Assembly: GCA_000092065.1 (NCBI GenBank)
Contig: CP000595.1
From: Ostreococcus lucimarinus
Lineage: Eukaryota
Strand: one strand, 5' to 3'
Length of the DNA: 64,000 nt
This document shows, one piece after another, positions 30,243 to 36,092 of the stretch. The position numbers and the translations under genes are program-made. Position 1 is the stretch's first letter. Each line of letters starts with the position of its first letter. The notes beneath the pieces are model-generated. The model worked only from the letters and a program-made list of their open reading frames with translations, was not told where the DNA came from and made no database searches.

Positions 30243-30653
30243 TTACGCAGTCTTCATGAACATCGTGCGAAGGACAACCTCTTCGCTCCCGACAGCCGGT
30301 CTCGCGAGTTCCTCGGAGGCGGCTTTGAACACCGCCGGCGCGCACGTAAAGTTGACGACGACTTGGTACGCATCCGGGTAACCCTTAATCTCGTACGAGT
30401 TCGGCTTCAATCCGTGCTCGGTTTGCTCCCACGCCACCAAACCTTCACCAAACATCGCCTTGAAATCATCCATCGTGGTCGCACGCGTGGCGTCATCGCA
30501 ATCCGGGCGCAACAACATGACGCCCTCGTACGAGTTCGGCTCGTTCTTCTTCGCCACGGCGCGCGTCTTTTGGCATTCACCACGACGCGTCGTCGACGTC
30601 ACGCGCGTCGGCGCGCGCACACCAGAGGTCACTGTGCATTCACAAACGCGCAT
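30243..30653 (-). CDS. rps6: Organellar (plastid or mitochondrial) ribosomal protein bS6
   Basis: ATG at 30653 was verified. After an N-terminal presequence, YEGVMLLRPDCDD...GLVAWEQTEHGLKPNSYEIKG...YQVVVNFTCAPAVFKAASEELARPAVGSEEVVLRTMFMK aligns over its full length with bacterial S6 (YEIVFMVHPDQSE...LEDWGRRQLAYPINK...YVLMNVEAP...VIRSMVMR). Confidence 0.7.
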   Translation of the reverse strand: MRVCECTVTSGVRAPTRVTSTTRRGECQKTRAVAKKNEPNSYEGVMLLRPDCDDATRATTMDDFKAMFGEGLVAWEQTEHGLKPNSYEIKGYPDAYQVVVNFTCAPAVFKAASEELARPAVGSEEVVLRTMFMKTA

Positions 30654-31215
30654 CTTTCGTCAGTCATCGTTCGCGTCGTCTCGATCGAGCGTCTCGCCGC
30701 GCCGCGCCGCCGCGATAGGTTCTAGGGCAGCTTCTAGGGTCTCGCCGCATTCGACTCGTCGTCCGTCCCACGCGACGCCCTCGCGCGCGCGCGAACGCGC
30801 GCGAACGATCGCCCGAAATCCCTCGCATCGGTTTCGTCGCTCCGAGCGCCCGCGCGACGCGTTTCGCCCGCACGCGCGAGGGAAATCGCGCCGTCGGCGG
30901 GACGTCACCGCGAGCGTCGGCGTCGCCTATCCATCGTCACCACCGCGCGCGCGCGCGCGCTTTCGCGTCGCGCGTCGCGCGAGGTGGTGAAGAATATTCG
31001 CGGTCGTCGTCTACGGGCGTACCTCGAGCGATGGAGTGCATGTTCGCGCGTCAATGTGTCGCGCGCGCGCGGCGTGGGGTGCTTTCGGCGCGTGGGACCA
31101 GGGACACTGACTGTTTATAGTGTACATGACTGTTTGCCCATAGACGGATTGACATCGGTCGGTCGACGCCGGCGACGGCGACTGACGAGCGCGTCCTGCG
31201 CGAATACTAAGCGAG

Positions 31216-32757
31216 CTAAATCTCTAAATTCTTACCACCACCCATCGCGATCGGGTGGTCGTGCCAAGTGCGCGCGCCGCACTTGTCCACGACGTCGCGC
31301 GGCTCCGTCGCGACGCTCAAGCCTCGGGAGTCGGCGCCCTGCGGGAACGACCACGGGACGTCGGCGTGCCGCGCGGGATCGTACCGCACGACGTCGCGCA
31401 CGCCCGCGTTCCAATCGAGAACTTCGTAACATCGCGCTTCGGCGTCCAGAAGACACTCGGGAACGCCCTCGGCGCGTTCGCGAAGCGCGGGATTGAAGAC
31501 TATGGGAAGCCACGCGCGCTCCAACGTGTGGGCCCACTCCAAAGCGGCGAAGTACTCGAAATCGACCGCGCTCGTGAGTTTGCCGTCGCAAGCGACGAGT
31601 AAACTGAGCGCTTCGTAAAACTTTTGCGAGCGATGCTTCGCCATGTCGCGCGTCACGGCAAAAATCGCCGAAATGGGCCAATCGAGCCTCTCCCCGAGGT
31701 ACCGCGACGACACGCGCCAGCCCGGTCTTTCGGATGCGTTCCTATCGGGCGCATCCGCGAGTTCGCTCGCCGGATCCTCGACGTCTTTGACGACATCGAA
31801 GAACGTTCGCAGAAGCAGCGCGAAGGCGTTGGTGTACATGTAAGTACCCACTAAAGGCTCTCGCGCCACGCTGTACGCGATGAACGTGTCGCCGTCGAAG
31901 TCTGTCGGCGCTTTTCCGTCGCGAGCGACCGAAAACTCTTTCTCCATCTTCCGCGCGCGCGCGTCGACCACGCGCGTAACCGTCCCGTCTCGCTCTCCCG
32001 TTCGCAACTCCTCGACGAACGCGCGCAGACTAGGCCAAAACGGCCTGTCGTCGTGCGCGAAGATGAAAATCTTCGGCGCGTCGCCGACGTACGTTTCGCG
32101 CAAAAACCACGCCATCGCGTCCACTTCGCGCGCTTGTGAATTCGGCATCTCCGCGCACATCCACGTCATCGCCCTCAAATCGTCGGTGAGCGCGTCGCAC
32201 GCGCTCTCCGGCGTCTTCGCCGCGAAGACCAATCCGAGCGTCGTCGCCGCCAAACCGTCGAATCGTTTCGTCAAGTGCGCCACCGAGTTCCCGCAGCACC
32301 ACGTCACGACGTACGCCACCTCGGGCACGACATCGCTTCGCCACGCGCCACTCACCGCGCCCCGCGCGAGATCCGCGGACGCCTCCGCGCGCGTCGCCGT
32401 CGTCGCGTTCGCCGCCGCCGACCCCAAATCCAAATCCGCCTCCACCGTCTCCACCGTCTCCACCGCCGACCCCTCCACCGCCGCGCGCGACGCCTCGCCC
32501 ACCTCTCCCGTCCCTCCCGACCTCACCGCGCGCGTCGCGATGCCTCGCGTCGCTCGCGCGTCGTCGAGCGCGCGTCGCGTCGACGCCCGCGCCGCGCCCC
32601 GCCCCCTTCCCGCGCCGTCGCGCGCCGTCGTCCACGTCGTCGCCATCGTCGCGATCGCCGCGATCGCCAGCATCGTCCGCGCCGTCTCGCGCCGTCGCGT
32701 CGTCCGCCGCGGCGTCGCGGTCGTTCGCGCGTCCCGTCGACGCCGCGGCGAATCGCC

Positions 32758-32791
<34 letters not shown>

Positions 32792-32844
32792 TCGCGGCGC
32801 GTCGCGGCGTCGTCCCGCGCGACGCGCGTCGCGGCGCGCGCCAT
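31216..32844 (-). CDS. Hypothetical type-II membrane protein (unknown function)
   Basis: It is the only long ORF with non-degenerate composition in this interval. It has an N-terminal low-complexity region with a (DA)n tract, a predicted membrane anchor (MLAIAAIATMATTW) and a globular C-terminal region with no confident homolog. ATG at 32844 was verified, but the true start may be an internal Met near the anchor. Confidence 0.4.
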
Positions 32845-33086
32845 CGGCGCGCGCGTCGCGGCGACGCGCGTCGCGATGCGTCGCGCGCCGCGCGCGTCAA
32901 AGATTAAAAGATTGAAAATCTGCGACCGCCGCGCGCGCGCGCGACCCGGCGTCGCGCGTACGGGCGTCTTTAAAAAAAAAGACGCACCGCGAACGCGCGA
33001 CCGGGCGAACGTACGAACGCGGGTCGTTCGAATCGACCCCGCGCGCGACGCGGCCGTCGCGCGCGCGCGCGCGCGTGCCGGCGTCG

Positions 33087-33270
33087 CGCGACCGACCGTT
33101 TTTTCGGCGCGCGACCGACCGTTTTTTTTTTATCCACGCGCGCATTCGTAAGAACGCTCGAATGAACGCCATGTGCGCGCGCGGCCACCGCGCGCGACCG
33201 ACCGTTTTTTTTTTTGAATCCACGCGCGTATTCGTAAGAACGCTCGAATGCACGCCATGTGCGCGCGCGG
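33087..33270. repeat. Intergenic tandem duplication (about 80-bp unit x2 plus a partial third copy of its 5' motif CGCGCGACCGACCG-T(6-13))
   Basis: Copy 1 at 33108..33184 and copy 2 at 33191..33270 are near-identical: gcgcgaccgaccg, a T-run, [ga]atccacgcgcg[ct]attcgtaagaacgctcgaatg[ac]acgccatgtgcgcgcgcgg. They lie in the divergent promoter between the 31216..32844 (-) gene and the FtsHi (+) gene. Confidence 0.85.
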
Positions 33271-33271
33271 C

Positions 33272-33326
33272 AAAACCCGTAATCGATCGCGCGCGCGCGC
33301 CCACCGCGCGATCGATTACGGGTTTT
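33272..33326. repeat. Perfect 21-bp-arm inverted repeat (palindromic hairpin) with 13-nt spacer
   Basis: Left arm 33272-33292 is aaaacccgtaatcgatcgcgc. The right arm 33306-33326 is its exact reverse complement. It directly abuts the tandem duplication and lies about 135 bp upstream of the FtsHi ATG. Confidence 0.85.
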
Positions 33327-33461
33327 TATCGCGCGCCGCCCTAGGTCGCGACGATCGCGCGTGCGCCGCGCGCGACGCCGCGACGCGCGTCACGTCGCGT
33401 CGATCGGACGCGCGCGCGCGTGGCGTCGCGTCTGATCGTCCGATCGACCCGCGGCGACGCG

Positions 33462-36092
33462 ATGGCGCTCGGCGCGCGCGCGACGACGCGGGATTTCGCG
33501 ACGGGCGCGACGCGCGTCGCGCGACGACGACGACGACGCGCGACGACGACGACGACGACGCGGGATGTCGCGACGCGGGCGCGCGGTGACGACGGTGACG
33601 CGCGACGCGTCGCGCGCGCGGCGGTCGGCGACGACGCGGCGCCGATGGCGAGCGAGGACGGGGCGACGGCGACGGGGTCGGCGAGACGCGCGCTGGGGCG
33701 AGCGCTGAGCGTCGACGACGACGACGCGCCGGGACGACCGTCGGCGCTGATGAAGACGCCGCGACCGACGGTGAAGCCGACGAAGGTGCCGCGGTGGTTG
33801 GCGCCGCTGGTGGATCAGTATTTCGTCGATCACAAGGCGCAGGCGAGGGCGCTGCGAGAGGGTCGGAGGTGGGACGGCGAGGCGGAGGATAGGGAGTACG
33901 CGGCGGCGTTTAAACTGTTCAAGACGGACGAAAGCGAGCGACCGGTGGAGATGACGTATCTGTTGGAGGATTACCCGAAGTTGTTGAAGCGGATGGGGAA
34001 GATGCGCAAGGCGCGACGGGCGAGTCGGGCGCAGCGGGAGGACACGTACCCGGATCCCGACACGAAGACTGTGAAATTCGGGTACCAGCGAATCGCGGAG
34101 AAGATGGGCGTGTACCCGCGCATCGATGGCGAGGCGACGTACGCGCAGTTTTTGGAGTACCTCGAACGACGCGAGGTGACGCGGGTGTTGCTCTACGAAG
34201 AGGGGAACATGGCCATCGCGGAGATGGGCGGTCCGGCGACGCACTTGGATCCGAACGTCGACGTCATTCGGTGGAAGGTGCAAATCCCGGGCGACGCGCA
34301 CGATGAGGTGACGCGGGCGTGTCTGAAAGCGTTTTACACGAAACCACACAACCCGGAAGATTTGTTCACTCCGGCGCAAACGCCGTGCCACCTGTTCATG
34401 AACATCAAGCCTTGGAACGTGGGCGTGCACGGCGCGCGCAACTGGCTCATGGCGTCGACGTTTTTCTACCTCGCGGGTACCGTGTGCAAGGGGGTGATTC
34501 AGGCGGACAAGGATCCCGAGGTCAAAAAGCGACGCGCGTTGAGGCAAAAGATGAAGAACGAGCGCGCGGCGCTCGCGGGGCAGATGGGAAAATCCAAGGC
34601 GAAGCTGGTGAAGAAGAACCAATCCAAGGTGCGCTTCAAAGACGTCGCCGGTCAAGACATGGTGGTGAACGAATTCCAGACCATCATCGACGTCATGAAG
34701 GGCAATCCGAAATACAAGGGGCGTTACGTCGAGCCGCCGAAAGGGATCTTGTTGGAAGGACCGCCCGGCACGGGGAAGACGCTCTTGGCGAAAGCCGTCG
34801 CCGGCGAAGCCGGGTTGCCATTTTTTTACGCCAACGGTTCCGAGTTTGTGGAGATGTTCGTCGGCGTCGCCGCGAGTCGCATGCGCAACCTGTTCAAGCG
34901 CGCGCGTGAAAACGCGCCGTCGATCATTTTCATCGACGAGCTCGACACCATCGGTCGCGCTCGCAACGCTGGCGAACAGCGCGACTCGTCGACGTCTGAG
35001 CGCGAGCAAGGGTTGATGCAAATGTTAGTCGAGATGGATGGTTTCGACAACAAGGAGTCCGGTTGTGAGATCTTGGTCATCGGTGCGACAAACTTGGCGA
35101 CGCAACTCGATCCAGCGCTGCTGCGTTCGGGGAGATTCGATCGCACCTATCACATCGGCGTGCCGCCGACGTCCGAGGCTCGCATGCCGATTTTGCAAGT
35201 GCACGCTCGCAACTTAAACATCGACCGCGGAGGTGACGACAAGTACGAGAGCGATGCCTTCTTACATCGCGTTGCCGATCTCACCACCGGCTTCTCCGGC
35301 GCCGAGCTCGCGAACGTGCTCAACGAAGCCGCCATCTTGAGCGTTCGCGAAGGCAAGGACTCCATCGATATCAACGACATAGAAGCCGTTTTGGAAAAGC
35401 AAGCCGTCGGTCTCATCAGCGCTCCGCTGGACGATGGTTGGGGGAAAGAGCACTTGGCCATCATCGAAGCGGCCAAGGCTGTGATTTATTCCGCTCGCCC
35501 CGAGCTCGGCCCGGAGCTGCTGCAAGTCTCCATTCGCCCTCGAGGAACGCAAATGTCTGGCCTCATCTTGACGGAGCGCTCGAGCGAAGCCGAAGCCGAG
35601 ATTCGCACCAGGATAGGTCCGGACACGCTGGGTTTGTACATCGACGCTCTCGCCGTGACGTTGACTGGTCGATGCGCAGAGTTGCACTTTTTCGGTCCCG
35701 ACGGTGTGTCCATTCGAACGAATGAAGAAGTTTCCGCGGCGGCGGAGATGGCGTTCGACATCGTCACCACGTCGGGTCTGTACCCGGATAGCAAGTTTGC
35801 GCCGCACTTCGATATGGCCATGGTTCACCAGCTCAGAATTCCTCGAGAAAATATGGAAAAAGGCACGCTCGATGTCATCCTTCGCGCGCACACCAAGGGC
35901 ATGGAACTCATTAAGGAGTATGCGCCGCTCATCGAACGCGTCGCGAACGAGCTCATGGAGAACGAACGCTTGTACGGCTCCACGGTTCGCGCAATGGTGA
36001 AGAAATACCAGCAAGAAGAACTAGGCGGCAACTTTACGCGCACGCCGTCGTTCTACGAAAGGGCGGCGATGAATAGCGCATCCAGCAATTAG
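33462..36092 (+). CDS. FtsH-like AAA+ protein with degenerate M41 metalloprotease motif (FtsHi-type, presumably plastid)
   Basis: The ORF-track start at 33420 is GTG; the first ATG at 33462 was verified. The AAA module is intact: Walker A GPPGTGKTLLAKA, Walker B IIFIDELD, and the SRH with LDPALLRSGRFDR. The M41 domain is recognisable, but the zinc-binding site reads AIIEAAKAV where FtsH has YHEAGHA, so both His ligands are lost. Confidence 0.8.
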   Translation: MALGARATTRDFATGATRVARRRRRRATTTTTTRDVATRARGDDGDARRVARAAVGDDAAPMASEDGATATGSARRALGRALSVDDDDAPGRPSALMKTPRPTVKPTKVPRWLAPLVDQYFVDHKAQARALREGRRWDGEAEDREYAAAFKLFKTDESERPVEMTYLLEDYPKLLKRMGKMRKARRASRAQREDTYPDPDTKTVKFGYQRIAEKMGVYPRIDGEATYAQFLEYLERREVTRVLLYEEGNMAIAEMGGPATHLDPNVDVIRWKVQIPGDAHDEVTRACLKAFYTKPHNPEDLFTPAQTPCHLFMNIKPWNVGVHGARNWLMASTFFYLAGTVCKGVIQADKDPEVKKRRALRQKMKNERAALAGQMGKSKAKLVKKNQSKVRFKDVAGQDMVVNEFQTIIDVMKGNPKYKGRYVEPPKGILLEGPPGTGKTLLAKAVAGEAGLPFFYANGSEFVEMFVGVAASRMRNLFKRARENAPSIIFIDELDTIGRARNAGEQRDSSTSEREQGLMQMLVEMDGFDNKESGCEILVIGATNLATQLDPALLRSGRFDRTYHIGVPPTSEARMPILQVHARNLNIDRGGDDKYESDAFLHRVADLTTGFSGAELANVLNEAAILSVREGKDSIDINDIEAVLEKQAVGLISAPLDDGWGKEHLAIIEAAKAVIYSARPELGPELLQVSIRPRGTQMSGLILTERSSEAEAEIRTRIGPDTLGLYIDALAVTLTGRCAELHFFGPDGVSIRTNEEVSAAAEMAFDIVTTSGLYPDSKFAPHFDMAMVHQLRIPRENMEKGTLDVILRAHTKGMELIKEYAPLIERVANELMENERLYGSTVRAMVKKYQQEELGGNFTRTPSFYERAAMNSASSN

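Follow-up and report, generated by a model that had tools for sequence, protein, structure and literature searches.

A strain-variable tandem repeat and perfect palindrome in the shared 5' spacer upstream of an FtsHi-like gene in Ostreococcus lucimarinus

Template-switch mutations, also described as quasipalindrome-associated mutations, produce a cluster of changes from one event, with new sequence that matches the reverse complement of a neighboring stretch exactly (PMC8794818; PMC7202029). Template switching can create a perfect hairpin in one event (PMC8794818). At yeast promoters, it expands inverted repeats, so that a short inverted repeat becomes a long perfect one (PMC13100816). A spacer between two diverging genes of Ostreococcus lucimarinus resembles these cases, in that a change cluster next to its own reverse complement would have turned a short inverted repeat into a long perfect one in a promoter region. 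It differs from them in that it belongs to a natural marine picoalga population, is still polymorphic, and has an arm that would have grown from 6 to 22 bp. Moreover, the yeast GRE2 case was functionally tested, and the spacer palindrome is known from its sequence.

Minisatellites, or VNTRs, are composed of head-to-tail units of at least 10 bp whose copy number varies through slippage or unequal exchange. The same spacer has a unit of tens of bp that is present once or twice, with microhomology at its boundaries. Unlike a typical array, it has only two copies and a fragment, and the copies are already ~6% apart. Multi-allelic indels in intergenic promoters are known from the related alga Bathycoccus prasinos, where the TOC1 and yrdC promoter markers are detectable in environmental DNA from a similarly compact Mamiellales genome (PMC11539686). 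Those markers belong to another genus and other loci, and their indels measure 200-1500 bp, compared to 16-190 bp in the Ostreococcus spacer. In the Ostreococcus spacer, the mutational origin can also be read from the sequence. Bacterial-type intrinsic terminators possess a G+C-containing perfect stem with TTTTT directly after it, and the spacer palindrome shares this layout. Here, however, the genome is nuclear and eukaryotic, both neighboring genes start at the spacer and none ends there, and other strains are without the hairpin.

The window refers to the whole 64-kb stretch of contig CP000595.1 that was analyzed, and contigs from other strains and lineages carry L numbers. The structures in the spacer are best explained as recent products of replication error, variable among strains, in an upstream region that is prone to repeats and shared by two genes. 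This reading is assigned a probability of about 0.78.

Flanking genes and repeats of the spacer

The divergent 5' spacer (32845-33461, unstranded) is 617 bp and is common to two genes that diverge from it. The left gene (31216-32844, minus strand) is an ORF with a GC3 of 0.82 and encodes a 542-aa protein of unknown function. A Pfam search with this protein returned no match. Its relatives in marine metagenomes are 98-99% identical, its O. tauri homologue is 49% identical, and its more distant relatives carry PF11913 (DUF3431). Apparently longer forms of 561-563 aa in other contigs were rejected as TTG starts picked by a prokaryotic gene caller, not biology. The right gene (33462-36092, plus strand) was identified by homology search as an FtsH-like AAA protein (FtsHi-like). 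Among named proteins, its closest relative is an Ostreococcus tauri protein with 69% identity; metagenome proteins reach 99%, and the best plant matches bear the annotation 'probable inactive zinc metalloprotease FTSHI 4, chloroplastic'. From these relatives, the window belongs to the nuclear genome of an Ostreococcus other than O. tauri.

Near their N-termini (33462-33700 and 32560-32844), both genes have low-complexity (CGA)n/(GAC)n coding sequence for runs of R, D, T and A. Strains are less alike in the FtsHi amino-acid sequence (98.9%) than at its 4-fold sites (99.6%), and therefore the variable zone seems to reach the presumed transit-peptide regions. Next to the start of the 542-aa gene lies AAAGATTAAAAGATTGAAAATCT (32899-32924), which is kept in L012, L036, L037 and L038 and altered in L010 and L011. 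The sequence GAAAATCT presumably resembles the plant CCA1-binding or evening-element core.

The spacer is structurally exceptional within the 64-kb window. The tandem repeat at 33107-33271 has a period of 86, 2.0 copies and 93% matches, and its score of 289 is the top score returned by TRF for the entire window. Copy 1 (33107-33192, plus strand) is an 86-bp unit delimited by TRF and direct-repeat analysis. Copy 2 (33193-33271, plus strand; TRF) is truncated where the left arm of the palindrome starts. Over a 64-nt core, the two copies are 94% identical. Upstream of them, a sequence match identifies a partial copy of the unit start, CGCGACCGACCG followed by T6 (33087-33104, plus strand). An older direct-repeat module, composed of a CG-run, CCGGCGTCGCGCG and TACGGG, occupies 32930-32971 (plus strand) and has a paralogue 132 bp away at 33062-33103 that matches it at 83% over 42 nt. 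A small hairpin, GCGTCTTT-A6-AAAGACGC (32964-32985, unstranded), is built on the A9 run and folds as DNA at -11.8 kcal/mol (z = -3.35). The homopolymers of the spacer are A9 (32972-32980), T6 (33099-33104), T10 (33122-33131), T11 (33205-33215) and a T5. All three A/T runs of at least 9 nt in the 64-kb window (A9, T10 and T11) are found in the spacer. For each of three spacer motifs tested, 0 of 100 dinucleotide shuffles reached the observed count. No strongly A+T-rich domain and no centromere-like composition anomaly was found in the window.

Directly 3' of copy 2 is a perfect inverted repeat with 22-nt arms that are 100% complementary and 11 nt between them, giving a total of 55 bp. The left arm (33272-33293, plus strand) carries the derived 16 nt AAAACCCGTAATCGAT on its outside (33272-33287), the reverse complement of 33311-33326. 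The loop (33294-33304, plus strand) is CGCGCGCCCAC, and the right arm (33305-33326, plus strand) is CGCGCGATCGATTACGGGTTTT, the ancestral copy, which all strains and the sister lineage L013 possess. The loop varies: L001, L012 and L036 have ATCGCGCCCAC, from which the window loop differs by AT to CG, and L010 has the longer ATCACGCGCCCAC. An exhaustive scan of the 64 kb for perfect hairpins with arms of at least 14 nt and a loop of at most 40 nt found two. Besides the palindrome, there is a 15-nt hairpin of almost pure G+C at 32818-32875, which leaves the palindrome as the only long perfect hairpin in the window with a different composition. As DNA, the palindrome hairpin folds at -39.3 kcal/mol (z = -6.2), compared to -17.9 kcal/mol (z = -0.56) and a 9-bp stem for its ancestral version. 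As RNA, its plus-strand form has a folding energy of -54.7 kcal/mol and its minus-strand form one of -61, with z about -6.5 to -7.2.

An earlier note on this DNA had described an 80-bp tandem duplication and a palindrome with 21-nt arms and a 13-nt spacer. Both structures are real, and the palindrome does adjoin the repeat; the period is 86 by TRF, and one more C-G pair makes the arms 22 nt and the spacer 11. The partial copy that it listed lies at 33087-33104, and its two full copies correspond to 33107-33271. The homopolymers were described as A9 and T9 to T13 runs, of which A9, T10 and T11 are present, and the window contains no T13. Other intergenic regions had been called short; many gaps are 33-130 bp, although several are larger on a crude ORF map. 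The description as a divergent promoter holds as far as a structurally exceptional, shared 5' spacer is concerned, and the special roles proposed for it are unsupported. A promoter role is suggested by the position of the spacer.

Variation of the spacer among strains

Exact look-ups of the two flanking proteins as encoded in the window gave no match, and same-species contigs were found via relatives from homology searches and one DNA scan. Four of the six informative same-species contigs end inside the spacer, and five of eight end inside it or at its edge. At FtsHi 4-fold sites, the window is 99.6-99.8% identical to L010 or L001 (99.6% for L010). Megablast aligns L010, L012 and L001 to the window collinearly, with 98.6-99.5% identity across 5-12 kb of either flank. 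This collinearity is interrupted only at ~32932-33226, and the variable zone continues to the left arm. Structural turnover is restricted to ~300-400 bp, and more than 20 kb of the flanks are collinear.

Within this zone, the strains differ in kind. In L012, from Tara run ERR868431, the 86-bp unit is duplicated and the palindrome is present, with strain-level differences. L001 has the palindrome, and this contig begins inside the unit. L010 and L036, which span the spacer, have a single copy of the unit and are without the left arm. The copy number of the unit is thus variable, with two in the window and L012 and one in L010 and L036. L010 and L036 have extra copies of the direct-repeat module spaced at 132 bp, and the small hairpin on the A9 run is found in L012 and not in L010. 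The strains also vary in how many copies of the 132-bp module they carry and in the T-runs and A-runs. In addition, a ~190-bp block is present in L010, L011, L012 and L036 and missing from the window and L037.

The ~190-bp block lies at 5730-5905 in L010, ~470-650 in L012 and 870-1060 in L036, and the corresponding junction in the window is at ~32927-32939. It holds a second copy of GACCGCGCGCGTCAAAAAT, which also adjoins the start of the 542-aa gene. The short form of the window, without this block, also occurs in the Tara contig L037, which makes it a third segregating structural allele.

The spacer center is structurally hypervariable among strains of the same species. Where the center can be aligned (33037-33197 of the window with 1167-1332 of L036), identity between the haplotype groups is ~84%, compared to ~98% in the flanks; that is, a divergence of ~16% against 1-2%. 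This divergence could be due to hypermutation, paralogous misalignment or old balanced haplotypes. The replication-error reading would attribute it to local hypermutability together with paralogous misalignment. Much of the structural variability is explained by the substrate, in which homopolymers and nested direct repeats occur alongside (CG)n runs and (GACC)n. The divergence of the center also exceeds that of the sister lineage at 4-fold sites.

The sister lineage, L013, is 93% identical to the window at FtsHi 4-fold sites. In its spacer, only CGATTACGGGTTTTT and CGCGCCGCCCTAGGTCGCGA can be aligned, and it has a single palindrome arm, the right one, and the CCCTAGG box. By alignment, the sole spacer block shared with L013 is composed of the right arm, the T-run and CGCGCCGCCCTAGGTCGCGA (33305-33352, plus strand). 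This block probably contains the promoter-proximal sequence of FtsHi.

CCCTAGG occurs once in the 64-kb window, in the spacer at 33339-33345. It also occurs once upstream of FtsHi in O. tauri (L002, 5544), L004 (7421), L006 (5890) and L013 (5428), and L003 has AACCCTACCTAAACCCTAC in its place. CCCTAGG may be a conserved promoter element similar to the plant telo-box. An upstream ORF of ~62 codons through the repeat was also considered and rejected, as it is broken by indels between strains.

Origin of the structures and competing explanations

The haplotypes with and without the left arm can be compared directly. L036, without it, reads ...GGC CACCG CGCGCG ATCGCGCCCAC CGCGCG ATCGATTACGGGTTTT, and the palindrome haplotype of L012 and L001 reads ...G(G)C AAAACCCGTAATCGAT CGCGCG ATCGCGCCCAC CGCGCG ATCGATTACGGGTTTT. 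Both have the same 25 nt 5' of CGATTACGGG. The sole difference at the left arm is a replacement of five nt (CACCG) by 16 nt, and the next 25 nt are identical. The 16 nt, AAAACCCGTAATCGAT, are the exact reverse complement of ATCGATTACGGGTTTT, which is located 23 nt downstream on the 3' side of the right CGCGCG. One replacement covers the whole difference, and the new segment is an exact reverse complement of adjoining sequence, as expected of a template switch. The state without the segment is found in L010 and L036 of the same species and in L013 of the sister lineage, and the ancestral haplotype already has a short inverted repeat, CGCGCG...CGCGCG, around the loop. In the window, the junction of copy 1 and copy 2 retains the unit end GGCCACCGCGCGCGA. 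The left arm is taken to be derived because L013 has a single arm and because GGCCACCGCGCGCGA is retained at this junction.

The duplication can be followed in a similar way. In the single-copy haplotype, the unit has ...CGGCGCGCGACCGA... to its left and ...CCACCGCGCGCGATCG... to its right, two sequences with GCGCGCGA in common. A difference between copy 1 and copy 2 (GAATGAACG and GAATGCACG, respectively) is common to the window and L012, and therefore the duplication is older than the split of those strains.

From these observations, a set of events can be proposed. The ancestral arrangement, with one unit, survives in L010 and L036. The 86-bp duplication could have arisen by slipped-strand mispairing or unequal exchange between the GCGCGCGA(C/T)CG direct repeats, a step that we infer from the sequences and that would yield precisely the 86 bp observed. 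The replacement pattern at the left arm is observed, and its likely mechanism is one template switch in replication, primed on the CGCGCG...CGCGCG quasipalindrome. This switch would have replaced CACCG with AAAACCCGTAATCGAT and converted a 6-bp quasipalindrome into a perfect palindrome with 22-bp arms. The resulting palindrome appears to be common in nature, as it is found in the window, the Tara contig L012 and L001, and it is neither fixed nor conserved.

The earlier note had also raised a small mobile-element footprint. It had added that the absence of other genomic copies and of conservation in the orthologous spacer would suggest a recent neutral duplication, and both were observed in the sequences covered. 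No further copies of the arm or the unit were found elsewhere in the 64-kb window. The unit was not found in the other fetched loci except as the orthologous copy in L036, and neither the arm nor the unit core had an exact match among IMG/VR viral contigs. The right-arm 19-mer hits 23 loci in JGI metagenomes, composed of the orthologous Ostreococcus locus and 22 unrelated chance matches. The statement that the structures are not dispersed covers the 64-kb window, the fetched loci, the viral contigs and this one arm-based metagenome scan. In the orthologous spacer, L010 and L036 are without both the duplication and the left arm. It is highly improbable that the palindrome is a MITE or the excision footprint of a transposon. 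The arms are perfect, as terminal inverted repeats would be, and they are present or absent among strains, but no second copy was found in the window, loci, viral contigs or metagenome scan. The arms also have no target-site duplication, with GGC before AAAA...TTTT and TATC after it, and the whole structure is just 55 bp. One arm is resident ancestral sequence that is shared with L013, and therefore nothing was inserted as a unit. The footprint proposed in the earlier note is unsupported, with no target-site duplication and, in the sequences covered, no dispersed copies. A Helitron 3' end, in which a hairpin is followed by CTAG, was considered separately and does not fit: the next base is not T, one arm is resident sequence, and the hairpin is polymorphic in contrast to CCCTAGG.

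Misassembly is typical of repeats and palindromes, and many contigs end at this spacer. Still, the chance that a collapsed or chimeric repeat, or another assembly artefact, accounts for the structures is close to negligible. The independent Tara Oceans assembly L012 has two units and the palindrome with strain-level differences, and the palindrome is reproduced in L001. The structures are real, because independent assemblies reproduce them, and the artefact that had been offered as a possible refutation does not apply. A small RNA gene is likewise very improbable, whether the hairpin or the 86-nt unit is taken as a microRNA-like precursor or as a Pol III-type transcript ending in a T-run. The stability of the RNA hairpin given above and the T-runs that come after the unit and the hairpin are in its favor, as are weak MIR6440 matches on both strands. 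In a search of the window against Rfam, no family matched at gathering thresholds. MIR6440 is the best of the weak matches in a search at E-value 10, with 31.4 bits against a gathering threshold of 95, and it scores equally on both strands, as any perfect hairpin would. ARAGORN found no tRNA or tmRNA. The predicted folds of the units are not more stable than those of shuffled sequence (z = -0.25 and +0.15), and the hairpin is missing from strains of the same species. Ostreococcus is reported to be without core RNAi machinery.

A working cis-regulatory element is an unlikely but more serious alternative. Here, the palindrome would be a dimeric transcription factor site or a cruciform, the units would be enhancer modules, and the whole would be an adaptive variant of FtsHi or the DUF3431-like gene. 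The left arm repeats, in inverted form, part of the sole block that is conserved with L013, at ~135-157 bp 5' of the FtsHi ATG. The palindrome allele was recovered in three independent samples, and its arms are perfectly identical in each, even though the loop and flanks vary; this pattern fits recency and also fits constraint. In yeast, GRE2 expression rose when a similar inverted-repeat expansion was engineered (PMC13100816). On the other side, the same-species strains L010 and L036 manage without the palindrome, and the G-box-like CACGTG motifs of the unit come and go between strains. A conserved palindrome for a dimeric transcription factor would retain both arms, and only the right arm is conserved; the left is missing in L010, L036 and L013. 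The right-arm block matches L013 at 78% over 93 nt with a near-identical core, compared to a neutral 4-fold level of 93%. Deep conservation of this block was considered and rejected, as L013 is only ~7% diverged at 4-fold sites and the block is not clearly above neutral.

Other Ostreococcus lineages and the meaning of the spacer

Upstream of FtsHi, the gene order varies within the genus. In L004 (6940-8001) and L006 (5402-6906), the gene for ribosomal protein S6 (RPS6) is the direct upstream neighbor. In the window (30243-33461) and L013, RPS6 is followed by the DUF3431-like gene. In O. tauri (L002, 125-6001), the DUF3431-like gene and then three sugar-related genes, Glyco_transf_90, Gly_transf_sug and a nucleotide-sugar transporter, are found upstream of FtsHi. 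The neighbor of FtsHi differs among lineages, and therefore its 5' boundary is a recurrent gene-order breakpoint.

The spacer itself also differs in other lineages. The O. tauri FtsHi spacer (L002, 5300-5990; chromosome 16 contig CAID01000016.2) is 776 bp with 53% G+C. It contains AT/AC-rich simple sequence and two GGTCGCATCACGATC..GTCGTGATGC modules with 9-bp inverted repeats, and looks like it holds an inserted or repeated element of its own. Another Ostreococcus species (L007, 34-204; L006, 6300-6640; L009, 100-430) has a 68-bp repeat upstream of FtsHi, with 2.5 copies at 87%, that contains the motifs GGTCGGTC(ATTCG) and TGACTCGTCAC. The arrangement of this repeat differs among contigs that encode an identical FtsHi protein. 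Contigs from several lineages stop a few hundred bp upstream of FtsHi, at position 1 in L001, L005, L007, L008, L009, L012, L037 and L038 and at the end in L011. These contig ends are probably due to strain heterogeneity or to repeats that break the assembly graph.

It is improbable that the repeats are a symptom of a fragile or initiating site in the spacer, for example an origin of replication, a hotspot of recombination or a breakpoint in evolution. The confinement of turnover to a few hundred bp between collinear flanks points in this direction, as do the upstream neighbors that vary by clade, the many metagenome contigs that stop just upstream of FtsHi, and the separate 68-bp x 2.5 repeat of the other species at the same place. 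Against this, L007 and L006, which belong to that other species, remain largely collinear across their own spacer, at 98.4% with small gaps, which weakens the case for a genus-wide hotspot. Contig ends are also expected wherever strains differ or repeats occur, and the window is without a centromere-type composition anomaly.

By comparison with known systems, the spacer appears to be ordinary in kind: a strain-variable, fast-evolving divergent promoter spacer with a hairpin of unproven function. The palindrome within it has the features of a textbook-quality template-switch event that is still polymorphic. Carriers would have an inverted second copy of the promoter-proximal sequence of FtsHi, because the segment lies within the one block that L013 has kept, and an effect on expression is possible. 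In the boldest version, one template switch would have produced a cis-regulatory allele of FtsHi, a chloroplast-related gene, that is now segregating in wild Ostreococcus, and the boundary would be a hotspot of structural mutation, at more than 10 times the synonymous-site rate, located at a gene-order breakpoint of the genus. This proposal is speculative and probably goes too far.

Read as a product of replication error, the spacer provides a natural example of a long perfect hairpin that would have arisen in one mutational step, with the 'before' and 'after' alleles both segregating in ocean populations. It also illustrates that a striking promoter structure need not be functional. The variability of the spacer would explain why assemblies break at this spot, and the spacer could serve as a multi-allelic marker for tracking Ostreococcus strains in metagenomes. 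If the palindrome alters the expression of FtsHi, it would be a rare regulatory variant whose origin can be read directly from its sequence.
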